Of a stretch of 64,000 bases of DNA, positions 11,582-25,381 are shown piece by piece; within the stretch, counting starts at the first letter, position 1; every line of letters starts with the position of its first letter. Under the pieces are notes generated by a model that was not told where the DNA came from, made no database searches, and saw nothing but the letters and a program-made list of their open reading frames with translations. The position numbers were made by a program, and so were the translations under genes. Source of the DNA: Candidatus Thorarchaeota archaeon (GTDB lineage: Archaea > Asgardarchaeota > Thorarchaeia > Thorarchaeales > Thorarchaeaceae); the NCBI GenBank assembly GCA_016933575.1, contig JAFGAR010000146.1, positions 1-64,000 on the forward strand, written 5' to 3'.

Positions 11582-11944
11582 ATTGGTTCACCCTTTTCTT
11601 CGTGGAATGTTGAAAATTCAACTAATAATAGGATGATAGTTCGAAGCAACTTTTTCTGAATGAGGTTTTAGGAAACAAGATATACCTCGTATGCTCTTTT
11701 AGAATGAAGTGATGTTCCTATCCACTGTGGGAAGCGTGTCCGTTTGTTAAGTTCTGTAAATATTCAACAATCGTGATTCTCTCTGTGAGTCGCTCTTCTT
11801 CATTCTACGCCCATAGAACGAGCCCTAACAGCCTCTAGTCTCGAAATAATGCTCTGATATAAAAGTAACATATTATATGATAATTTTTTACTAATTAACC
11901 ACAGGGACAATACTGCGGAGGAATAGTATCCGAGGACAAAAAAA

Positions 11945-12568
11945 ATGGCAAATACTTCGAACTCCCCTCTCATGGAAGAGAATGTGACCTTTGCTCCAGC
12001 AGCTGGTAAATCCCGCCTGACCAAGGCTCTTGTAGCAGGTTCTGGAGCTGTAGGAAAGACCACTCTTGTGCGAGTACTGAAAGAAGGTAAATCGATCAAC
12101 GAGTCTAACTCTACTCAGGAGTATCATAGAACCCCCTTTCTCGAGCTTGAAACCATCAAAGTTGAGAGAGTTGGTGGGACCGGGTCCAGTGGCATCTATC
12201 TCTTGGTAGATGTGGCAGGACAACTAGACCAGCCAATTCATGCTATCCGAGACCTCAGTAAGATTGCGCTGGGGAGTGTTGAGTTGGTATTCTTGATATT
12301 CTCTGCTGAGAACCTCCAATCTCTGTTAGACCTTAGGGACTGGGTCTCTTTGATCAAGACCCAATACAAAGAGGTCCCTGGGAAGGAACTGAAGTTCGTG
12401 CTTATCATGAACAAGTGCGACCTGGGGAGTTGTTTTGATTCTGAGCTAGTATCGAGATTCATCCAGTCTGAACCTATGATCTCGGGATATTTTGAGGTCA
12501 GTTGTAAGAGCGGTGACGGAATCTCGGAACTGCAAACTTGGCTAGTAAAAAATGTGACATCAGAATAA
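11945..12568 (+). CDS. Ras/Rab-like small GTPase
   Basis: G1 GSGAVGKT, G2 T, G3 DVAGQ, G4 NKCD, G5 SCK. Confidence 0.9.
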   Translation: MANTSNSPLMEENVTFAPAAGKSRLTKALVAGSGAVGKTTLVRVLKEGKSINESNSTQEYHRTPFLELETIKVERVGGTGSSGIYLLVDVAGQLDQPIHAIRDLSKIALGSVELVFLIFSAENLQSLLDLRDWVSLIKTQYKEVPGKELKFVLIMNKCDLGSCFDSELVSRFIQSEPMISGYFEVSCKSGDGISELQTWLVKNVTSE

Positions 12569-12587
12569 ACAAGGAGCTTTCGACCAG

Positions 12588-13508
12588 ATGACATTGGCAA
12601 GTAACATTACTGAATTCAAATGTAGAGTGTGCGGCAAGCAGATACAATTTGACCCTAAAGATCCATCCTCGTACCTATCAAAGTCAGAGCATGAGGATTT
12701 CTTTGGGATGAAACTCACAACATTTCGCATTGCTCACGATTCAAAAGATGAACGTCACTACAATACTGTGATTGTTGATCAAGCTGGATTCTTCAGGGGT
12801 CATAGAGATGCATACACTGAACCTATTAACGAACTTAAACCATCTTTTGATAGAGAATACTGGGTATTCCATGAAGAAGGTCCAACCATCGAGAAGACGC
12901 ACAATGTTGCTCTTGCGGTTCTCATCAGTAGGAGTGACCGTTGGGTGATCGATATTGTATGTCCGAGGAATCTGAATGCATCTCATATAGCAACTCTCGT
13001 AGTAGATCGAGTTGAGGAGGCATGGCGTGTATATGATTCCATCCCCCGGCCACTGGACATGAGAGTTGCTGACATGGAGATGAAGGTATGGTCTTCTGAA
13101 TCTCGAGTATTGTGTGTTTGTTTTACAAACGGTTCATTGATGAAATCGATAGATTCTGTTGCTGAGCATATCGTGAATGAGCGCGATGGTTCAATCATCC
13201 CACGAAGAAGGAATCTGAATGTCATATTTCGGATTCTCGAGAGTGATTCTAATCTAGACCCATCGATACTCTCACGAATTATCAACGAGGATATGCTATT
13301 CGCCACACTTCACACACCTTATGAAGATAGGATTCCCAGCATTGTGGAAAGAACTGCATCAAGATATCCTATTGCTGGGGAGCTATTGGGTCCACTATTG
13401 CGTGGTTACATTACATTGATCGAAGCTCTTGAGGGCGATTTCAGTTCAAGATACAAGGAAGTCTTTGAGTTGATTGATTTTGTTAACCGGAGACGAATAT
13501 TGGGATAG
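12588..13508 (+). CDS. Hypothetical protein with N-terminal CxxC/His metal-binding module and C-terminal wHTH-like helices
   Basis: CRVC...H...H; operonic spacing with GTPase (19 nt) and MTase (8 nt). Confidence 0.7.
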   Translation: MTLASNITEFKCRVCGKQIQFDPKDPSSYLSKSEHEDFFGMKLTTFRIAHDSKDERHYNTVIVDQAGFFRGHRDAYTEPINELKPSFDREYWVFHEEGPTIEKTHNVALAVLISRSDRWVIDIVCPRNLNASHIATLVVDRVEEAWRVYDSIPRPLDMRVADMEMKVWSSESRVLCVCFTNGSLMKSIDSVAEHIVNERDGSIIPRRRNLNVIFRILESDSNLDPSILSRIINEDMLFATLHTPYEDRIPSIVERTASRYPIAGELLGPLLRGYITLIEALEGDFSSRYKEVFELIDFVNRRRILG

Positions 13509-13516
13509 ATTTTGGA

Positions 13517-14569
13517 GTGAGTAAAATGCTACCGACAATAGGTGCTTGGACAGAACTTTTGAAAATTGGTGGCACTGGCCGTACCAGGAAGAAGGAGTTA
13601 CGAGCATATTATCGTGCACTCTCCTTCAATGTTTTGAGAAAAGAGGGTTTGTTTGATTTTCTAGTAACACCACAGTCAGTTCAGAGTATTGCTAATCGTT
13701 TTGGATATACAGATATTCAATTTCTCACCAAATACTTGGATGCTTACACAGAAGATGAAATACTAATTAGAGAAAACGGAACTTATCGAACTAACGGCAT
13801 TATCAAAGAATTCGCTGTTATCGCTCCTGATATTTTCAATCCAGGACTCCAACAGATAGCTTCTGATGGAGCCGCAGCTATTCCTGATCGACTAAGAGGG
13901 CAATATTCAACCTTCTCAGATGAGATGAACACTTTCAACTGGGATGATGCTCTTCAATTAAAGATGTACGATCATATACGGAATGCTGCTTTTGGATATT
14001 CAGGGGCCTTGAAGAGACGGGGTAAATTCATTGATGTTGGATGTGGTAATGGGGTTGGAACAGCGGCAATCTGGGGCAAATTCTACAAGAGAGGTGCTTT
14101 CGAATCAGGTAATCCTATGAAAATGTATGCATTGGAATACGACCCAAATCTAAAGCAAATAGCAGAGGAGGAGTTTCCGTTATCTGTTTCCCGTTTGTTT
14201 AATATTGATCGTACTATCATTGATAATCTATCCCCACACTACCCTACTTTCGTTCAAGGTTCTGCTGAGGAGCTGCCTTTCGAGGACGAATTCTTTGATA
14301 TGGTATATACATCTCAAGTTCTGCACTGGTGTGACGCTGAGAGAGCAACCAAGGAAATGATGCGAATTCTAAAACCTGGCGGGCTTTTCTTTGGTACTGA
14401 AGCTTTTTACCCAATGCTCGATATCTATGTTGAGCTCAATGTTCTGCTCAACGAAGGGGCTCATGGGGCAATTATGAAGGAGGAATTTATTCGATGGGTC
14501 AAAGAGGCTGGAGCTTCTGAGGTGAAAACTGCAACTCCAGCAGGTCTGTTTAAAGTTCTAAAATCCTGA
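13517..14569 (+). CDS. Class I SAM-dependent methyltransferase with N-terminal wHTH-like domain (paralog 1)
   Basis: FIDVGCGNG, GSAEELPFEDEFFDMV, LHW, LKPGG. Confidence 0.9.
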   Translation: MSKMLPTIGAWTELLKIGGTGRTRKKELRAYYRALSFNVLRKEGLFDFLVTPQSVQSIANRFGYTDIQFLTKYLDAYTEDEILIRENGTYRTNGIIKEFAVIAPDIFNPGLQQIASDGAAAIPDRLRGQYSTFSDEMNTFNWDDALQLKMYDHIRNAAFGYSGALKRRGKFIDVGCGNGVGTAAIWGKFYKRGAFESGNPMKMYALEYDPNLKQIAEEEFPLSVSRLFNIDRTIIDNLSPHYPTFVQGSAEELPFEDEFFDMVYTSQVLHWCDAERATKEMMRILKPGGLFFGTEAFYPMLDIYVELNVLLNEGAHGAIMKEEFIRWVKEAGASEVKTATPAGLFKVLKS

Positions 14570-14665
14570 TTTGACTAAAGGAGATATCAACATGGGTCAA
14601 AGAATAGCTACCTGTGAACAACTTTTCAAAATGGATGATATAGAAATAGGGCGTGTGATGAAATA

Positions 14666-15706
14666 ATGTTGTCAACAATTGGTGCATGGGCGGAAATTAT
14701 CTGGTTACTTACTTCAAAGGACAGAGTAAAGATGGTACATGAATACCATCAAGCACTCTCTGTCAATGCAATGAGAAGAGAGGGTTGGTTTGACTACATG
14801 AGGATGCCACAGACTGTCGAGGACCTCATGGATCATTTTGGATACACTGACTTTCCATATCTCATGAAATTTCTAGATGCATTTGTTCATGATGGAATTT
14901 TGATTAGAGAAAATGGAACCTACCGTACTAATGGTCCTATTGCTGAATATCCAATCAACCCTCCTGATATATTCAATGCGGGAATATTGCAGGTACATGC
15001 CGATGCATTAAATGCAGTTCCTAATAGACTGAAAGGAGTCTATACCACCTTCTCAGATGAGATGAACACGTTCAATTGGGATGATACGCTCCAGTTAAAG
15101 ATGTATGATAAAATCAGAAAAGCCGCATTCAGATTTACAGATGCTCTCAAGAGAAGTGGTACATTTCTTGATGTTGGCTGTGGCAATGGGGTTGGAACAG
15201 CAGCAATCTGGGGGTACTACTACAAGAAAGGTGTATTCACTTCAAACAATCCCGTAAAGATTTACGGATTGGAATATGACCCAAATCTTATGCAGATTGC
15301 AGATGCAGAATTTGCCATTTCAGCATCTCGTTTACTCGGTGTGGATCGTAGTGTTATCGATGCTCTTAAGGAACATCACCCCGTCTTTGTTCAGGGAAAC
15401 GCTGAGGAGTTACCTTTCGAGGACGAGTTCTTTGATATGGTATACACATCTCAAGTTCTGCACTGGTGTGATGCAAAGAAAGCAACCCAAGATATTCTGA
15501 GAGTTCTCAAACCTGGTGGTCTCTTCTTTGGTACTGAAGCATTTTATCCAATACTTGATCCCCACATTGAGCTATTCATCCTACTCAATGAGGGTGCTTA
15601 TGGTGCTATCAAGAAGGAAGACTTCTTCCAATGGGCTAAAGAGGCTGGAGCTTCCACAGCAAAATCAGCAACGCCTGCTGGTGTCTTCAAAGTTGTGAAG
15701 AATTAA
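14666..15706 (+). CDS. Class I SAM-dependent methyltransferase (paralog 2)
   Basis: FLDVGCGNG, GNAEELPF, LKPGG; colinear with paralog 1. Confidence 0.9.
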   Translation: MLSTIGAWAEIIWLLTSKDRVKMVHEYHQALSVNAMRREGWFDYMRMPQTVEDLMDHFGYTDFPYLMKFLDAFVHDGILIRENGTYRTNGPIAEYPINPPDIFNAGILQVHADALNAVPNRLKGVYTTFSDEMNTFNWDDTLQLKMYDKIRKAAFRFTDALKRSGTFLDVGCGNGVGTAAIWGYYYKKGVFTSNNPVKIYGLEYDPNLMQIADAEFAISASRLLGVDRSVIDALKEHHPVFVQGNAEELPFEDEFFDMVYTSQVLHWCDAKKATQDILRVLKPGGLFFGTEAFYPILDPHIELFILLNEGAYGAIKKEDFFQWAKEAGASTAKSATPAGVFKVVKN

Positions 15707-15830
15707 TCAATGGAGATTGGGGGCTACTAATACGAAAGGAAGACTTCGTGAATTGACCAGCAGAACACAGGACTACAAGAGTCGAATTTACCGCTCCTTT
15801 GGCTTCAATAAGGTTTACAAGAATTCATGT
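15704..15830 (+). pseudogene. Decayed C-terminal fragment of a third methyltransferase copy
   Basis: Translates LINGDWGLLIRKEDFVN*PAE...TAP versus LLNEGAYGAIKKEDFFQWAKE...ATP; TGA in place of Trp. Confidence 0.5.
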
Positions 15831-15929
15831 ATTGTGTTGATGTGAAATCGATGGTAAGTATTGGAGTATGATACCCACACTATGACAACACTGGTACTAC
15901 AAGAGCTTGATTCAGGAGTGTAGATGTAG

Positions 15930-17081
15930 ATGCTACAGGTGCCAATCTATTGGAATCCATTCACTATGCTAAACACAGTCTACGCGCTTGCAAACGTCAT
16001 ACCCCTGCTGATAATCGCGTTCATAGTCTATCATCGAGATCCGACTTCCAAGATTAACAGACTGTTCTCCTTGGGTTCTGCATTGTTCGCTCTTGCTTAT
16101 GCGCTATTCCCCATCGGTGGTCTGTTCTGGAATGTTTCGATTCTCAGTGTTCAAGTCATCCTTATCTCGACCAGACTCGTCTTCTTTATCGGATTCATCA
16201 GTCAGGTTGTTCTGTGCTGGGTAGCACTAGCTCTCTATGAAGGCGAAGCGATGTGGAGCCGGAGGAGAACAGTCTTTTTTGCTGGTAGCTTGATTCTCAT
16301 CAATCTTGTTGGGGTTCTTACCCCTGACGCTATCTATATCATCAACGGCCCACCAGAGATTGATACTGGAGAGGGGCTTATCTACAGTCTCTTGGGATAT
16401 CCTCTGATTGCTCTTCTCATCACTGTTTCACTTGTGACCTTCTCGAAAACATATTTCGAATTTCATAAAGAAGACCGAATAATTGGGCGTCAGGCGATGG
16501 TGCTGACTATTGGCACCTCTCTTGAATTCACTGCTATGCTCACAGGACTTCTCTCATTGTTACTCCTCATGCATTCTCTCACCTTTCTCGTCTTTGCTGT
16601 CGCCTCCACGGCAACAGTTGTGAAGTCGTTTGGATTTACGCAAGAGGCAAGTCTTGTGAAACTTAAGGTGACCAGTGAACTTCGAAGGATGAAGATTGCT
16701 ATCTCCAAAGGGCAGATTGAACGAGCTGAATTGCAGTTGAAGTTTATCAAGGACCTGGTCGCCCGAGAGAAGTCCATTGTAGCGAATGCACGGATGTTGA
16801 CACTGGAAGGATTAGTGAAGACCTATCAAGCCGACATACCATCTGCTCGTCTTGCCTTCAATGACGCAAAAGAGCTTGCAGAGAATGAGCACCTAACTGG
16901 CCTCTTAAACGAGATTGATGATCATATTGAACATTTACAAGTCTATGAAACTATGTTGACAATCAGCGAATCTGTCACGATTCCCCACAATTATACAAAC
17001 GAAGCAGAAGAAATAGAACGTGCATTAGCATACCTTGATGAGATAACCAAAAGCCCAGATATCATCTTTGAGAGAACATAA
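15930..17081 (+). CDS. 7-TM membrane protein (HisKA_7TM-like) with cytoplasmic TPR-like helical tail
   Basis: About seven hydrophobic helices with P-x-S-K-I-N-R-L-F loop; helical C-terminus; no kinase motifs. Confidence 0.7.
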   Translation: MLQVPIYWNPFTMLNTVYALANVIPLLIIAFIVYHRDPTSKINRLFSLGSALFALAYALFPIGGLFWNVSILSVQVILISTRLVFFIGFISQVVLCWVALALYEGEAMWSRRRTVFFAGSLILINLVGVLTPDAIYIINGPPEIDTGEGLIYSLLGYPLIALLITVSLVTFSKTYFEFHKEDRIIGRQAMVLTIGTSLEFTAMLTGLLSLLLLMHSLTFLVFAVASTATVVKSFGFTQEASLVKLKVTSELRRMKIAISKGQIERAELQLKFIKDLVAREKSIVANARMLTLEGLVKTYQADIPSARLAFNDAKELAENEHLTGLLNEIDDHIEHLQVYETMLTISESVTIPHNYTNEAEEIERALAYLDEITKSPDIIFERT

Positions 17082-17181: not shown

Positions 17182-17514
17182 CTAGGGGATGGCTTCCGAT
17201 TGTTTTTGCGCCGCCTTCGGACCATAATATAAACCAATTAGAAATGCGATGATGAGTAGTAAAATCATATTGAAATAGATACCAAAGCCAGCTTGTTCGA
17301 AGGGGAAGATACTTGGTGTAATGTTTAGTACAACATGAAATGCTGCTCCCGTGAAGATAGATCCATTATTGTTATTGTACAGCCAGGTCATTATGATAGA
17401 GAGTGTGGTTGTGTTAGTAATGAAAAGCCAGAATGGTTTGTTTGCATAGGCCTCGATTCCTAAATCCGAAGATAAGTTACGATAGTAATTTGAGGATAGA
17501 GATTTATTAGTCAC
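17182..17514 (-). pseudogene. C-terminal half of a CPBP (Abi/CAAX) protease
   Basis: TWLYNNNNGSIFTGAAFHVVLN motif present; EExxxR motif absent. Confidence 0.6.
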
Positions 17515-17561: not shown

Positions 17562-18395
17562 ATGAAGGAGTTCATCGTCAGACATCAATTAGCATTATTC
17601 GGCCTAATCACTCTGATAATTGGGTGGTTCTGGTGGGGTCAGATGGCCTTACACCTCTGGCCTGCAGAATATATCATTATTCCCTCAACGCTCGGAGGTA
17701 TCTCCCCAATCCTTACTCTTGTGATTCTCCAAAAAATCTCACAGCGTGAAGTGGATCTAGATGGAATTGTGAAGACAGCAAAGGTCGGATTTACTCATTT
17801 TCCGTGGCTCTTTATTGCTGCATTCATTCTTCCGACCGTCATAACACTTGGCAATCTTCTAAACTATGTTCTTGGATTCGAGACCGCGCTTCTTCTCCTA
17901 AATCCTGATCCTGCTGAATTGGGTTGGGCTTTGTTAGCCATCATCCCTATCACCTTTTTCCCTGGACTGATCACCAGTCCACTCTTTGAGGAGACGGGGT
18001 GGCGTGGATTTGCTTTGCCCAAACTACAAGCTAAATTTGGTCGTGAACTGGGGAGTCTTCTTGTTGGTTCGTTCTGGTGGCTCTGGCATCAGATGTCTAA
18101 CATATCCTTTGGTATCTTCCCCTCAGTATTGGGATATCTAACTATGTTGGGACAATCATTTGCAATAGATTCTATGTTCAACTTATCGAGGCGGAATCTG
18201 CTTGTTGCAATGTTTGCCCACGAGTCGCTCTTCATAACATTCACATATCTCTATAGAACTGGCAATGAGTTTGGTTCAATCCTAATTCTTGGGTTAATTT
18301 GGTTGTCTGTTCTTGTCCTAAGGATTGGAGAAAGAATCTGTGGATATCCAACGGAATTGAACCATCCCTTAACGTGTACTGATTCAGACAACTAA
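17562..18395 (+). CDS. CPBP family intramembrane glutamic endopeptidase (Abi/Rce1-like)
   Basis: EETGWRG, WWLWH, FAHES motifs. Confidence 0.9.
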   Translation: MKEFIVRHQLALFGLITLIIGWFWWGQMALHLWPAEYIIIPSTLGGISPILTLVILQKISQREVDLDGIVKTAKVGFTHFPWLFIAAFILPTVITLGNLLNYVLGFETALLLLNPDPAELGWALLAIIPITFFPGLITSPLFEETGWRGFALPKLQAKFGRELGSLLVGSFWWLWHQMSNISFGIFPSVLGYLTMLGQSFAIDSMFNLSRRNLLVAMFAHESLFITFTYLYRTGNEFGSILILGLIWLSVLVLRIGERICGYPTELNHPLTCTDSDN

Positions 18396-20848: not shown

Positions 20849-22207
20849 ATGAAAGAGAACGAGAAATCTATTGAAGAGATCAACATCAGAATTGCTGATG
20901 GAAATGCACGTGTCGTCACTGCGGATGAGATGGTCAAGATCGTCGCAGAGATGAGTGTTGATGAAGTAGTACATGAAGTCGATGTTGTCACAACGGGTAC
21001 GTTTGGTGCGATGTGCTCTTCCGGAGTCTGGATGAACTTCGGACATTCTGAACCTCCTATGAAAATGTCCAGGGTCTGGCTGAATGATGTAGAGGCCTAC
21101 TCGTCCGTGGCTGCTGTTGACGCCTATCTTGGAGCAACACAACCTTCACGGAGCCTAGGAATTGAATATGGCGGAGGTCATGTCATTGAAGACCTTGTTC
21201 GAGGAAGATCTGTCCGTCTTGAGGCAGAAGGTACATCCTCTGATTGCTACCCACTAAAGAGTCTCTCAGCTGATATCAAACTTGAAGACATGAATCAGGC
21301 TATCATGTCGAACCCTCGCAATTGCTATGAGCGATATGGAGCAGCAACAAACACATCTGATCGCGCCATCAATACATACATGGGGCGACTGCTGCCTTCC
21401 ATGGGGAACGCTACCTATTCTGGAGCGGGAGAACTCTCCCCAATAATCAATGATCCCACTTTTCAGACCGTTGGAATTGGTACTCGAATTCTTCTTGGAG
21501 GTACTGAAGGTTATGTCATCGGCAGTGGTACTCAGCACAATCCTAGTGATGGATTTGGAATCCTTATGGTCCAGGGCAATCTCAAGCAGATGAGTCCTGA
21601 GTTTCTCCGAGGCGCTACTCTGACTGGGTATGGTCCAACACTCTATGTGGGCGTTGGAGTACCGATACCCGTCATCAATGCAGAAGTTGTCAGGAGTACA
21701 GCAGTAGCGGATGGCGATATTGTCACAGATGTCTATGATTACGGTATTCAATCCCGGGATAGACCGACTCTAGCCAAGGTCACTTATGAAGAACTGAAGT
21801 CCGGAATGATTGAGATCAATGGAACAATGGTTCAGACATCAGCACTCTCGAGCTTCAGGAATGCCTTAATGATTGCCAGAAGATTGAGAGACCTGATTCT
21901 GCAAAAGAAATTCTTCCTGACTGAACCTGTTGAGCTACTGAAATCCGAAGGTACTGCATATCCAATGCGCCAGCGAGTCAGGAATGACGCACGAGACCCG
22001 CAGATTGCAGTGAATCACTATTCGGAGTACTATGTTCAACGTGATGAAACAAATTGTGTTCACTGTGGATTATGTGTTCCATACTGCTCAGCTGGAGTGT
22101 TTCAGCAGAATGTTGACTGGACAGTGTCCTATGAACCAAGTCGATGTGTAGAGTGCGGCGAGTGTCGAGATGTCTGTCCTCAACGTGCTATTCATCTTCG
22201 AGGGTGA
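20849..22207 (+). CDS. Homocysteine biosynthesis protein (DUF39, aspartate-semialdehyde sulfurtransferase) fused to 2[4Fe-4S] ferredoxin
   Basis: VDVVTTGTFGAMCSSG, YGGGHVIEDL, TYMG; C-terminal CVHCGLCVPYC and CVECGECRDVCP. Confidence 0.9.
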   Translation: MKENEKSIEEINIRIADGNARVVTADEMVKIVAEMSVDEVVHEVDVVTTGTFGAMCSSGVWMNFGHSEPPMKMSRVWLNDVEAYSSVAAVDAYLGATQPSRSLGIEYGGGHVIEDLVRGRSVRLEAEGTSSDCYPLKSLSADIKLEDMNQAIMSNPRNCYERYGAATNTSDRAINTYMGRLLPSMGNATYSGAGELSPIINDPTFQTVGIGTRILLGGTEGYVIGSGTQHNPSDGFGILMVQGNLKQMSPEFLRGATLTGYGPTLYVGVGVPIPVINAEVVRSTAVADGDIVTDVYDYGIQSRDRPTLAKVTYEELKSGMIEINGTMVQTSALSSFRNALMIARRLRDLILQKKFFLTEPVELLKSEGTAYPMRQRVRNDARDPQIAVNHYSEYYVQRDETNCVHCGLCVPYCSAGVFQQNVDWTVSYEPSRCVECGECRDVCPQRAIHLRG

Positions 22208-22218
22208 GGTGATGCAAA

Positions 22219-22947
22219 ATGGAACGATATTATCTCAGAATTGGAGAGACTATAGCTACGCTCATCTCCGAACCAGAATACCACTCGATAGCAGAGCATG
22301 CCGTACGATTCGCGCGACGACAGGTTATTGACTACATAGAAAAAGTGCCAGAATTCAAGACAAGCTATGCACCTCTGGAGATTAAAGACAATGCTCCTGA
22401 TATTGTGCAGTCCATGGGCCGAGCAGCTTTCAAGACAAACGTAGGTCCAATGGCTGCAGTCGCTGGTGCTATCGCTCAATTTGCTATAGAAAGTATGATG
22501 GATGCAGGTGCCAGCCATGTAGTCTTTGACAATGGAGGGGACATAGCAATGTATCTCGACCATCCCATCATTGTCGGACTCTATACTGGTACGAAAGGTC
22601 CACAGGGGCTTGGTTTCAAAGTGACTAGGACTGGAACACTCCTTGGTCTCTGTACCTCATCCGCAACAATTGGACACTCGTTCAGTTTTGGGAACACCGA
22701 TTCTTCAACTGTCTATGCTACTGATGTGGCTCTTGCCGATGCATACGCAACTGCTCTAGGAAACGCAGTCACAATCCCTGACTATACTCTCATTGAATCT
22801 TCGCTTCGGGGTGTGATGATTCCGGGTATTCTTGGAGCAATGGTGACAATCGATGATGCTGTTGGCACCTGTGGCATGCTACCTGAGTTGGTCCAGGCTC
22901 GGGTCGACTATGATTTAATCTCAAAGGGTCTGGGGGGATATGAGTGA
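22219..22947 (+). CDS. UPF0280/COG2122 ApbE-like sulfide-assimilation protein
   Basis: VGPMAAVAGAIA, DNGGDIA, CTSSATIGHSFSFG, ADAYATALGN. Confidence 0.9.
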   Translation: MERYYLRIGETIATLISEPEYHSIAEHAVRFARRQVIDYIEKVPEFKTSYAPLEIKDNAPDIVQSMGRAAFKTNVGPMAAVAGAIAQFAIESMMDAGASHVVFDNGGDIAMYLDHPIIVGLYTGTKGPQGLGFKVTRTGTLLGLCTSSATIGHSFSFGNTDSSTVYATDVALADAYATALGNAVTIPDYTLIESSLRGVMIPGILGAMVTIDDAVGTCGMLPELVQARVDYDLISKGLGGYE

Positions 22948-23999
22948 AGAAACTAAGAGCGTGTATCCTTGGTGCTACAGGGATTGTTGGGCAGCACTTC
23001 ATTCGAATCTTGGCTGACCATCCATTCTTTGAGATAGAAGCATTGACTGCATCGCCTCGTTCTCAGGGTCATGAGTATGGCAGACAAGTAGACTGGCTTG
23101 TATCTGAGAGAGTCCCTGAGATTGTGCAGGAGATGGTCATTCAGGACACATGTGCGGATACTGTGTTGAGACTTGACCCGGACATAGTCTTCAGTGCACT
23201 ACCAAGTGGAATCGCCTCAGATATTGAAGCTCAATTGGCCACTGCTGGCCTACCAGTCTTCTCCAATACTGGTGCTCACCGGATGGACTCCTCAGTTCCC
23301 ATATTGATACCTGAGGTCAATCCGGACCATCTGGAATTGATCAAATATCAGGACCTAGGTGATGGTTACATTGTCACAAACTCAAACTGCTCTACTTCAG
23401 GCTTGGTTCTGGCTCTCAGACCCCTGATGGAATTAGGCGTGCGTAAGCTCACTGTGACTACGTTTCAAGCAGTCTCAGGAGCGGGAAGACGGGGTGTGTC
23501 ATCTCTGGACATCCTAGGAAATGTCATCCCCTTCATCACAAACGAGGAAGCGAAGATTGTGGGAGAGACCAAGAAGATACTAGGCACCAGGTCTACAGGT
23601 GAGGTCATTCCAGCTCCTATCGATGTGAATGCAAGTTGTGCAAGAGTGCCCGTCTTAGATGGACACCTTGAGAGTGTCGTTATAGATATGGATGAACCTG
23701 TTTCAATTGACAGAGTGGTCGAGTTACTGGAGAACTTTACCGGCGAACCACAGGCTCTTACTCTTCCAATGGCTCCCAGTAGACCCCTTGTGGTCCTTCA
23801 TGAGAATGACCGGCCGCAACCCAAGAGAGACCTCTCCTTAGGGTCTGGCGATCTGGGGATGACCGTAAAGCTGGGTCGCCTCCGCTGTCAGGGCAACCAG
23901 CTCAACATGTTTCTCTTGGTCCATAATACCATACGTGGCGCAGCAGGTGCCTCTGTGCTTAATGCTGAGTTTGCACGAGCAAAGGGGGTGTTGGCGTGA
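22944..23999 (+). CDS. asd: Aspartate-semialdehyde dehydrogenase
   Basis: LGATGIVGQ, PEVN, NSNCST, QAVSGAG, HNTIRGAAG. Confidence 0.95.
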   Translation: MKKLRACILGATGIVGQHFIRILADHPFFEIEALTASPRSQGHEYGRQVDWLVSERVPEIVQEMVIQDTCADTVLRLDPDIVFSALPSGIASDIEAQLATAGLPVFSNTGAHRMDSSVPILIPEVNPDHLELIKYQDLGDGYIVTNSNCSTSGLVLALRPLMELGVRKLTVTTFQAVSGAGRRGVSSLDILGNVIPFITNEEAKIVGETKKILGTRSTGEVIPAPIDVNASCARVPVLDGHLESVVIDMDEPVSIDRVVELLENFTGEPQALTLPMAPSRPLVVLHENDRPQPKRDLSLGSGDLGMTVKLGRLRCQGNQLNMFLLVHNTIRGAAGASVLNAEFARAKGVLA

Positions 24000-25381
24000 G
24001 AGTGGCTAAATTCGGTGGTGGCTGTCTCAGAGATGCCTCCGATTTCTTACGTGTGGCTGAAATCATCAAGCAGGACCAAGCTGAAGGTGTTGTCGTTGTT
24101 GTGTCTGCAGTCTTCGGAGTCACTGATATGCTTTACAATGGTGCCAGATATGCTCTCAATTCCGAGGCAAGCATTCCTCAGACAATGAGAAATATTCGGA
24201 CAAGACATCTCGATATCATCGAAGCTGGAGTGCACAACCCTGTGATCATGGTTCAGGTCAAGAGACTCATCGAGGAACGGCTTCAGAAGCTCGAACGTCT
24301 TCTCTATGGGGTTGCCTATATCGGAGAACTAACAGAGTCGGTCAGAGTGCTCGTCCTTAGTCAAGGGGAACGTCTAGCTGCAGTAATTCTCGCTCATGTT
24401 CTGCAGGCTTCTGGCATTGATTCTGAGGTCTTGGAGACTGATTGCATTGGATTACTCACCGACAATGTGTTTGATGGTGCGAGTGCAAATCTATCAAGGG
24501 CTCGTTATAATATTCAACGCCAAGTCACTCCACTGATTACAAGTAATGCGACTCCAGTCATCACTGGCTTCTTTGGATGCAACGAGGCTGGTCAGACAAC
24601 GACCTTTGGAAGGAATGGCTCTGACTATAGCGCAGCAGTGATTGCCTGTGCTTTAGATGCCAGAGTCTTGGATATCTGGAAAGATGTCAATGGATTCATG
24701 ACAGCAGATCCCAAGATAATTGAACATGCAATACCAATCGAACTACTCTCCTACAGTGAGGCTGCTGAGCTGTCCTATTTTGGGGCTAAGATCTTGCATC
24801 CACGAACAGTGGAACCACTTCGTGATTCTAACATCGAGATCAATATCCGAAATATCCGCTCTCCCGACGGTCCACGAACTGTGATTTGGCCCAGAGGGCA
24901 AGCTGAGAGGGATGTGATAAAGAGCATTGCCTGCAATAGCGGAATCTCAGTCTTGAAGATTCATGGTGCTGGAGTTGGCTTTAAACCCGGAATAATAGGT
25001 GAGATTGGAAAGACTCTCTCACTTGTCAATATCAACATCTTCTCAGTGATCACCTCTCAGACCTGTATCAATCTATTACTCGATTCTCGTGACTCATTAA
25101 TGAGCCGGGATGCCCTTTTACCACTTGTCGGAGGTGTCATTGGTGAGATTGATGTCCGAGACGATCTAGCATTGATAGCAGTAGTTGGTGAAGGTCTCTT
25201 GACAACCCGGGGTCTTGCAGCTCGAGTGTTCTCTGCAGTGGCTGAGAGTGGGGTCAATGTAGAGATGTTCTCAGCTGGAGCCTCTGATGTAGCATATTAT
25301 TTCATTGTCAAACGAGAGGATATGGAGCCTGCAATACAGGCTGTGCACAGGAGCTTCTTCGAGTCTAAAGCAACAACATAG
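23996..25381 (+). CDS. lysC: Aspartate kinase with two ACT domains
   Basis: KFGG, GRNGSDYSA, DVNGFMTADP, YFGAKILHP. Confidence 0.92.
   Translation: MRVAKFGGGCLRDASDFLRVAEIIKQDQAEGVVVVVSAVFGVTDMLYNGARYALNSEASIPQTMRNIRTRHLDIIEAGVHNPVIMVQVKRLIEERLQKLERLLYGVAYIGELTESVRVLVLSQGERLAAVILAHVLQASGIDSEVLETDCIGLLTDNVFDGASANLSRARYNIQRQVTPLITSNATPVITGFFGCNEAGQTTTFGRNGSDYSAAVIACALDARVLDIWKDVNGFMTADPKIIEHAIPIELLSYSEAAELSYFGAKILHPRTVEPLRDSNIEINIRNIRSPDGPRTVIWPRGQAERDVIKSIACNSGISVLKIHGAGVGFKPGIIGEIGKTLSLVNINIFSVITSQTCINLLLDSRDSLMSRDALLPLVGGVIGEIDVRDDLALIAVVGEGLLTTRGLAARVFSAVAESGVNVEMFSAGASDVAYYFIVKREDMEPAIQAVHRSFFESKATT

Follow-up and report, generated by a model that had tools for sequence, protein, structure and literature searches.

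Which of the genes around a Ras-like GTPase of a Thorarchaeota genome belong together, and what would they do in common? In Asgard archaea, small GTPases and roadblock/longin proteins similar to those of eukaryotes number in the dozens, and to our knowledge the partner or the controlled process is known for almost no Asgard GTPase. We examined this question in a 64,000-nucleotide stretch of Candidatus Thorarchaeota archaeon (contig JAFGAR010000146.1, positions 1 to 64,000; hereafter, the window). Five co-oriented open reading frames (ORFs), all on the plus strand, had been described there in an earlier note made from the sequence alone, and all five were confirmed at the positions given. They encode a small GTPase, a CxxC/His partner protein (hereafter, the adaptor), two methyltransferases (MT1 and MT2), and a seven-transmembrane (7TM) protein. 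Three kinds of gene, for the Ras-like GTPase, the adaptor, and a methyltransferase, form a conserved unit (the trio) that is kept together across many Asgard lineages. We consider it probable, although well short of certain, that the locus encodes a three-part module of a Ras-like GTPase, a dedicated adaptor, and an S-adenosylmethionine (SAM)-dependent methyltransferase, in which the state of the GTPase is coupled to the enzyme. This reading is based on the gene linkage, a gene fusion, the correlation between adaptor domains and partner genes, inheritance as a unit, the protein folds, a complex model, and the intact motifs of the GTPase and the methyltransferase.

Conservation of the three-gene unit

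Gene neighborhoods were compared at 41 distinct loci with a full-length adaptor, which came from related genomes and included two loci with another gene order. A methyltransferase gene adjoins the adaptor gene in 36 of the 41 loci, and the C-terminal domain (C-domain) of the adaptor is present in all 36 of these methyltransferase-linked loci. A GTPase of the same subfamily lies directly upstream of the adaptor in 27/41 loci (one fragmented and one fused). The usual order is GTPase, adaptor, and a methyltransferase of about 347 amino acids (aa), with flanking genes that are unrelated between loci, and six or more Asgard families have the unit. One family has the methyltransferase first, followed by the GTPase and then the adaptor. 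That the GTPase, its partner, and the methyltransferase belong together had been proposed from the window by itself; the neighborhood survey over Asgard genomes, together with the fusion, the congruent trees, and the complex model described below, bore this out.

Trees of the three proteins agree in their major clades, and the clade of the window received Shimodaira-Hasegawa approximate likelihood ratio test (SH-aLRT) values of 99, 99, and 100. One genome (G344) carries two paralogous trios, which fell into separate clades in all three trees, thereby indicating that the trio was inherited as a unit and that the agreement does not merely reflect species relatedness. At another locus (L038; G339:C4:191000-209000), two full trios lie in tandem on one strand, and the module therefore duplicates as a whole. 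A contig of 8.7 kb that had been assigned to an 'uncultured Ignavibacteria bacterium' bin (L074; CAZWAO010000108.1) also carries a trio, with an adaptor 73% identical to that of the window and with HcyBio after the trio; it is most likely a mis-binned Thorarchaeota contig.

The three proteins and their predicted contact

The features of the locus in the window are listed below, with the evidence for each in parentheses.

11855..11905, + strand: candidate promoter of the trio, an AT-rich TATA-like stretch 40-90 nucleotides (nt) 5' of the GTPase start (read from the sequence)
11945..12568, + strand: Ras-superfamily small GTPase, 207 aa (Pfam Ras, family alignment, locus tally)
12588..13508, + strand: partner/adaptor gene, 306 aa, starting 19 nt past the GTPase stop
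12588..12827, + strand: adaptor N-terminal beta-rich domain, aa 1-80, with a presumed zinc site (alignment, structure model, profile matches)
12867..13196, + strand: adaptor middle domain, aa 94-203, with a roadblock/longin-superfamily fold (VIA-align, Foldseek)
13206..13508, + strand: adaptor C-terminal helical domain, aa 207-306, predicted to dock the methyltransferase (complex model, locus tally)
13526..14569, + strand: MT1, class I SAM methyltransferase, 347 aa from ATG, or 350 aa from the alternative GTG at 13517 (Methyltransf_11, structure model)
14666..15706, + strand: MT2, paralogue of MT1, 346 aa (identity of 64%, tree)
15930..17081, + strand: HisKA_7TM-like 7TM protein with a helical tail, 383 aa, a neighbor outside the module (Atlas neighbors, hydropathy)

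In gene order, the intergenic gaps measure 19, 8 or 17, 96, and 223 nt. The first of these had been given correctly by the earlier note. It had placed the start of MT1 8 nt after the adaptor stop, and a GTG is indeed present there (13517). However, the ATG at 13526, 17 nt after the stop, is the likelier start, because it agrees with the starts of MT2 and of the orthologues.

The GTPase matched Pfam Ras with 40.6 bits (cutoff, 21.6), and its profile was closest to Ras/Rho structures (K/N-Ras; E = 2e-14). In a 19-sequence alignment of the family, the G1 motif GSGAVGKT, switch-I Thr63, G3 (D89-x-x-G92-Q93), G4 (N156-K157-x-D159), and G5 (S186) are invariant or nearly so. The G3 motif of the protein is the canonical DVAGQ, with the catalytic Gln93 retained, and an invariant Arg62 stands directly before Thr63. 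By its motifs and family match, the protein is thus assigned to the Ras superfamily. Its C terminus, KNVTSE, has no CaaX, no Cys, and no lipidation motif, and no Rab-type C-terminal Cys prenylation motif was found in the 19 aligned relatives. The complete G1-G5 set and the missing CaaX box reported earlier were therefore correct. Two further observations concern GTPase genes at other loci. A second, paralogous GTPase gene lies directly upstream of the trio GTPase in six loci of the window's clade (L064, L065, L068, L009, L010, and L012), and in the second trio of genome G351 (L050:7620-8234, the same place as L069), the GTPase gene is in two short fragments and the adaptor and methyltransferase genes are intact.

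The adaptor showed no match to any Pfam or NCBIfam family, including Pfam Robl_LC7, and a scan of all 17 aligned members with the same databases gave only marginal zinc-ribbon matches (E > 0.05). C12, C15, H35, H50, and H57 are invariant in the family alignment, and this Cys2/His set of the N-terminal domain (N-domain) is presumed to be a zinc site. The AlphaFold2 (AF2) model, with a mean predicted local distance difference test (pLDDT) value of 83, consists of three parts: a beta-rich N-domain (residues 8-79), a middle domain (94-203), and a helical C-domain (207-301). The middle domain, with the order strand-strand-helix-strand-strand-strand-helix, aligned in VIA-align with the Asgard Roadblock3 protein 9jue (Z 9.1; root-mean-square deviation [rmsd], 3.0; 99 residues) and, over about 100 residues each, with the Thorarchaeota roadblock protein 7f8m (Z 8.1), 7yh1 (Z 8.1), and MglB 6hjm (Z 7.9). 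Foldseek matches were Mon1-Ccz1, Ragulator, and MglB, and longin domains likewise. By its modeled fold, the middle domain belongs to the roadblock/LC7-longin superfamily; we use this inclusive name because the domain lacks the N-terminal helix and its order is nearer to that of longin. This assignment agrees with the earlier expectation of a roadblock/longin regulator beside an Asgard GTPase. The tail of the adaptor, N300-R301-R302, is invariant. In a feature-based Atlas search with the N-domain, all matches were to unnamed Asgard clusters and lay under the trust level.

Variants of the adaptor were informative about its partners. Among 1.84 billion representative proteins, the family is a small one, of 104 clusters at 50% identity, with homologues named Candidatus Thorarchaeota. 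Its profile was matched in 92 of the 400 genomes of the Asgard phylum set, with many of these matches covering only the N-domain within longer TPR proteins. These TPR proteins, of about 740 aa, are headed by the adaptor N-domain (profile residues 6-85), to which the Atlas match adds the middle domain; they lack the C-domain and have no methyltransferase neighbor, and a GTPase of the same subfamily lies immediately upstream in 18/22 of their loci (profile E, 1e-39 to 1e-58). Adaptors of a shorter form (about 248 aa), which have no C-domain, likewise keep the GTPase (four of the four genes seen), and none has a methyltransferase neighbor. At one locus (L061, protein P0051), the GTPase and the adaptor are fused in frame, and a methyltransferase gene follows. 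This pattern of variants and neighbors indicates that the zinc-beta/roadblock core tracks the GTPase and that the C-domain tracks the methyltransferase. An adaptor core with exchangeable outputs (methyltransferase docking, TPR, or none) suggests a modular wiring of GTPase effectors in archaeal relatives of eukaryotes. The methyltransferase-linked adaptors of family f9, of about 395 aa, contain two tandem CxxC/His beta domains (L045:6449-7639, L046, L052, L054, and L055). Downstream of the adaptor, the f9 loci carry genes for a methyltransferase, a GNAT-like protein of 330 aa, and a B12-binding radical-SAM-like protein. The extra regions of longer adaptors (the N-terminal 300 aa of P0062 and the C-terminal 260 aa of P0091) showed no match to the GTPase or methyltransferase profiles.

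MT1 and MT2, which are 64% identical, both matched Methyltransf_11 (E of about 1e-17; 65 bits, with a cutoff of 21.2). The AF2 model of the methyltransferase (pLDDT, 88.6) has a helical, winged-helix-like lid at the N terminus, consistent with the winged helix-turn-helix (wHTH) and SAM-binding parts recognized earlier. D170, G172, G174, and G176 of motif I, as well as H267/W268, are invariant in the family. Based on the family match, motif I, and the modeled fold, MT1 and MT2 are class I SAM-dependent methyltransferases. Relatives at the sequence level were generic only. In the structural comparison, the model aligned with the C-methyltransferase of CurJ (5thy) at Z 27.3 over 316 residues (rmsd, 2.9), followed by AprA MT2 (6d6y; Z 25.4), DszA (6cca; Z 24.8), and the citrinin CMeT (5mpt; Z 24.2), so that alignments of this type reached Z 24-27 over 315-321 residues. 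The ladderane-cluster methyltransferase 8hd2 gave Z 22.2, compared with Z 17-20 over about 180 residues for generic class I cores, and Foldseek agreed with the C-methyltransferase fold. In the model, the architecture of lid plus core is that of polyketide-type C-methyltransferases. No carrier protein gene was found near the trio in the surveyed neighborhoods. In addition, the enzymes had no match to the CheR family in Pfam/NCBIfam at E <= 0.01, and no che genes occur in any surveyed neighborhood. The C-methyltransferase fold therefore favors a small-molecule or acyl substrate over CheR-like methylation of a receptor, and the analogy with chemotaxis that had been drawn for this locus is not supported.

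The two methyltransferases differ in origin. In the tree, MT2 is sister to the methyltransferase of the same-genus genome G009 (SH-aLRT, 98), and MT1 branches outside the genus group. By these sequence relationships, MT2 is the orthologue of the single methyltransferase in the same-genus loci, and MT1 is a lineage-specific extra copy inserted between the adaptor and MT2. Twin methyltransferases had been taken as a feature of the system; since other loci normally carry one, they are a local peculiarity of the window. In the spacer between MT1 and MT2 (14592-14666), there is an ORF of 24 codons whose TAA stop overlaps the ATG of MT2 (TAATG). This ORF may be due to chance or may be a remnant of the insertion that gave the twin methyltransferases.

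The contact between the adaptor and the methyltransferase was examined in a three-chain complex prediction. The methyltransferase chain reached an interaction prediction score from aligned errors (ipSAE) of 0.68, compared with 0.01 for the best control. Of the solved complexes, 58 of 80 came up to this mark, as did 2 of 110 mismatched pairs; these counts apply only roughly here, since the prediction had three chains and relied on alignments of our own. At least 90% of the contacts agree between runs, and the pLDDT of the methyltransferase is at least 85. In the model, the methyltransferase contacts the adaptor only, with adaptor residues 245-255 and 299-304 facing methyltransferase residues 106-110, 131-141, and 208-216. 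The pairs with the lowest error join R301/R302 of the adaptor with F137, D140, D141, I212, and E216 of the methyltransferase, all invariant or nearly so. No solved complex of a similar kind is known to us, so it seems unlikely that the predictor simply reproduced a known structure. The complex model thus supports binding of the adaptor to the methyltransferase, which it favors without proving. Of the contacts that the earlier note had wished to see modeled, the control-checked docking of the methyltransferase on the partner is the one obtained, with a score that covers the methyltransferase chain.

Explanations of the locus

For a module in which the GTPase acts on the enzyme, the following scheme is proposed. 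By analogy with MglB and Ragulator, the zinc-beta and roadblock/longin core of the adaptor would bind the GTPase, on which it would probably act as a GTPase-activating protein (GAP), a guanine nucleotide exchange factor (GEF), or a reader of the nucleotide state. Arg62 of the GTPase may serve as an intrinsic finger that is positioned by the roadblock GAP, a concept taken from PMC10933270. The C-domain with its Arg301/Arg302 tail is predicted to clamp the lid-core junction of the methyltransferase. The direction of control would run from the GTPase, whose nucleotide state would tune how active the methyltransferase is, how substrates reach it, or where it is located, and the output is likely to be methylation of a small molecule or a substrate of the acyl/lipid type. 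In the window, MT1 could compete with MT2 for the same docking site.

Several observations weigh against this scheme. Five full-length adaptors have no methyltransferase neighbor, and in the large family f9, no small GTPase adjoins the methyltransferase-linked adaptor. The loci are phylogenetically related, and the counts therefore overstate their independence. In the complex prediction, the methyltransferase was the only scored chain, so the contact between the GTPase and the adaptor lies outside the score. Taken together, the interface residues show no significant excess of conservation over background (permutation P of about 0.2), and it is the core contacts alone that are invariant. With respect to the His-Glu dyad of C-methyltransferases, H267 is the same in all family members, but the position of the candidate Glu is variable (E/Q/N/V).

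Among the other explanations, the one that survives best reverses the direction of the signal, and we regard it as unlikely. Here, the methyltransferase-fold protein would be a sensor of SAM or of a metabolite, and its ligand state would be relayed through the adaptor to the GTPase, much as SAMTOR or Unmet of animals pass SAM status on to regulators of Rag GTPases that are made of longin/roadblock domains. SAMTOR is a SAM sensor with a class I methyltransferase fold that acts on GATOR1 (PMC10883374), and methyltransferase-derived sensors have been recruited repeatedly (PMC10245982). The same kinds of parts co-occur at the trio, namely, a methyltransferase fold, a roadblock/longin regulator, and a small GTPase, and the predicted docking site at the lid-core junction would lie near the SAM entry of class I enzymes. 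However, SAMTOR was not among the closest structural matches, and the many invariant pocket residues fit an active enzyme equally well. A weak lead comes from the neighboring genes. In the window, 5 kb past the trio (20849-25381), there are genes for HcyBio with ferredoxin domains, a 242-aa protein, aspartate-semialdehyde dehydrogenase, and aspartate kinase, and a homocysteine-biosynthesis operon directly follows the methyltransferase in L066, L074, and the P0032 contig. This nearness of homocysteine/aspartate-pathway genes reflects either a gene order conserved in a single clade or a connection with SAM metabolism. Since it is confined to one vertically related clade, it may be plain synteny. 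A wider form of the sensor idea takes the trio as an archaeal metabolite-sensing GTPase switch that reports SAM/methyl-cycle status or substrate availability through the zinc-longin/roadblock adaptor, and it strikes us as slightly less likely still. If true, eukaryotic SAMTOR-GATOR-Rag nutrient sensing would have in the trio its prokaryotic counterpart, perhaps one that preceded it in logic, with the zinc-roadblock core reused with TPR outputs for other signals.

It is improbable that the genes share an operon merely for a common pathway or for co-regulation, with no complex between their products. In favor of such a loose association, some adaptor loci do lack one of the two partners. On the other hand, the in-frame fusion of the GTPase with the adaptor, the presence of the adaptor C-domain where there is a methyltransferase, the complex model that passes its controls, and the congruence of the trees, including the paralogous copies, speak against co-location alone.

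Even less probable is methylation of the module's own proteins, in which the enzyme would modify the adaptor (e.g., its Arg-rich tail) or the GTPase, and methylation would tune the switch rather than be its output. Acidic residues that hold arginine are typical of arginine methyltransferases, and the complex model does place N300-R301-R302 against the invariant acidic residues D140, D141, and E216. However, these contacts are at the junction of lid and core and on the helix that follows strand 2 and may not reach the site of methyl transfer, and the whole fold is that of small-molecule/acyl C-methyltransferases and not of the protein arginine or CheR type.

The explanation offered originally, in which the 7TM protein is a receptor acting via the GTPase and methylation serves as the output or for adaptation, as in chemotaxis, is highly improbable, because it is contradicted by the comparative data on the 7TM gene: homologues were found in only 4 of the 86 family genomes, always on contigs other than that of the trio, with no match in the trio-bearing same-genus genomes G009 and G023 and no 7TM neighbor at any other surveyed trio, and the CheR match is missing. 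The same-genus locus L063 has a single methyltransferase directly followed by NhaA, with no 7TM gene between. In comparison with L063, L066, L074, and the P0032 contig, the 7TM and CPBP genes of the window have been added between MT2 and NhaA. Because it is rare, never on a trio contig, and absent from L063, the 7TM gene is considered a local insertion, in agreement with the reservation, made at the outset, that this gene, 223 nt downstream, might be independent. In favor of a receptor, the 7TM gene is co-oriented with the trio, with no obvious T-run terminator in the 223-nt gap, and the fold of its product resembles the 7TM input module of histidine kinases. The protein has approximately seven hydrophobic segments (residues 16-225), and its ESM Atlas model has HisKA_7TM proteins as structural neighbors (TM, 0.5-0.6); no Pfam match to HisKA_7TM (PF16927) was found at E <= 0.01. 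Of the earlier description as a kinase-less 7TM protein with a TPR-like tail, the segments and the lack of a kinase domain were upheld, and the tail can be described as helical in the model.

Known systems and neighboring genes

The nearest known systems are MglA-MglB and an Asgard roadblock-Rab-DENN operon, neither of which has the adaptor architecture of the trio or an enzyme as its third member. In MglA-MglB of Myxococcus and Thermus, as in the trio, the gene for a Ras-like GTPase is paired with that for a roadblock-fold regulator (adaptor versus MglB, Z 7.9). MglA has an intrinsic arginine finger (PMC10933270), and the invariant Arg before the switch-I Thr of the trio GTPase would be at the position of this finger; R62-T63 is invariant, G3 is canonical, and a roadblock-fold protein is co-encoded. 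The trio adaptor differs from MglB in having three domains, including the zinc-beta and enzyme-docking parts, and in lacking a Robl_LC7 match. The trio GTPase also keeps the canonical DxxGQ motif, and the output of the trio is a methyltransferase, whereas that of MglA-MglB is the polarity/motility machinery. The Asgard operon comprises a LAMTOR1-like roadblock protein, a Rab-like GTPase, and a DENN-domain protein (10.1101/2020.10.19.343400). It shares with the trio the conserved Asgard pairing of a small GTPase with roadblock/longin proteins, but its third part is a DENN protein of the GEF type instead of an enzyme, and the adaptor architecture is different. No methyltransferase-linked module is mentioned in that study, and no paper describing a GTPase-roadblock-methyltransferase module was found in the open-access literature.

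Other systems resemble single aspects of the trio. In SAMTOR/Unmet-GATOR-Rag of animals (PMC10883374, PMC10245982), a methyltransferase fold is coupled to longin/roadblock regulators of GTPases, as is predicted for the trio; no homology to the trio was detected beyond generic folds. SAMTOR is a sensor without a known role in methyl transfer, whereas the trio enzyme keeps its catalytic motifs and has C-methyltransferases as its closest folds. The C-methyltransferases of polyketide synthases and 8hd2 align with the trio enzyme over the full length of lid and core (273-321 residues; Z 22-27). The sequence identity is just 14-16%, however, and the trio enzyme is a free-standing protein that has neither a carrier protein nor a synthase in its vicinity. 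The Streptomyces conservons CvnA-D contain a membrane sensor kinase, a roadblock protein, a DUF742 protein, and a Ras-like GTPase in one operon. This is the prokaryotic layout of Ras-like GTPase, roadblock protein, and membrane sensor that had been envisaged for the window. At the trio, however, conservation of the module does not extend to the membrane protein, there is no kinase, and a methyltransferase is in third place.

In comparison with these systems, the new elements are the predicted Arg-tail interface, the correlation of the C-domain with the methyltransferase, the fusion protein, and the GTPase-linked TPR variant, as well as the assignment of the C-methyltransferase fold and the recognition of MT1 and the 7TM gene as local additions. 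The module provides a pairing that can be read from genomes, in which a single GTPase subfamily goes with a single dedicated adaptor family and a single enzyme. Moreover, its predicted interface rests on few invariant charged residues and is thus testable with recombinant proteins.

Some further genes were considered in connection with the locus. A generic methyltransferase match (mad2) was the only result of a PADLOC defense scan, in which neither the GTPase nor the adaptor nor the 7TM protein was matched. Beside the 7TM gene, there are two Rce1-like ORFs of the CPBP (CAAX-protease) family, one at 17182-17514 on the minus strand, which is fragment-like, and one at 17562-18395 on the plus strand. 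The idea that these CPBP proteins act on the GTPase was dropped, because the GTPase has no CaaX and the CPBP genes are missing at other trio loci. A pair of genes for a wHTH protein of about 373 aa and a protein of about 167 aa flanks the trio at six loci of one Thorarchaeota clade (e.g., L039:8929-10606). This pair was set aside as a source of extra partners; in the genome of the window, it lies on another contig (G000 contig C140:87949-89553).

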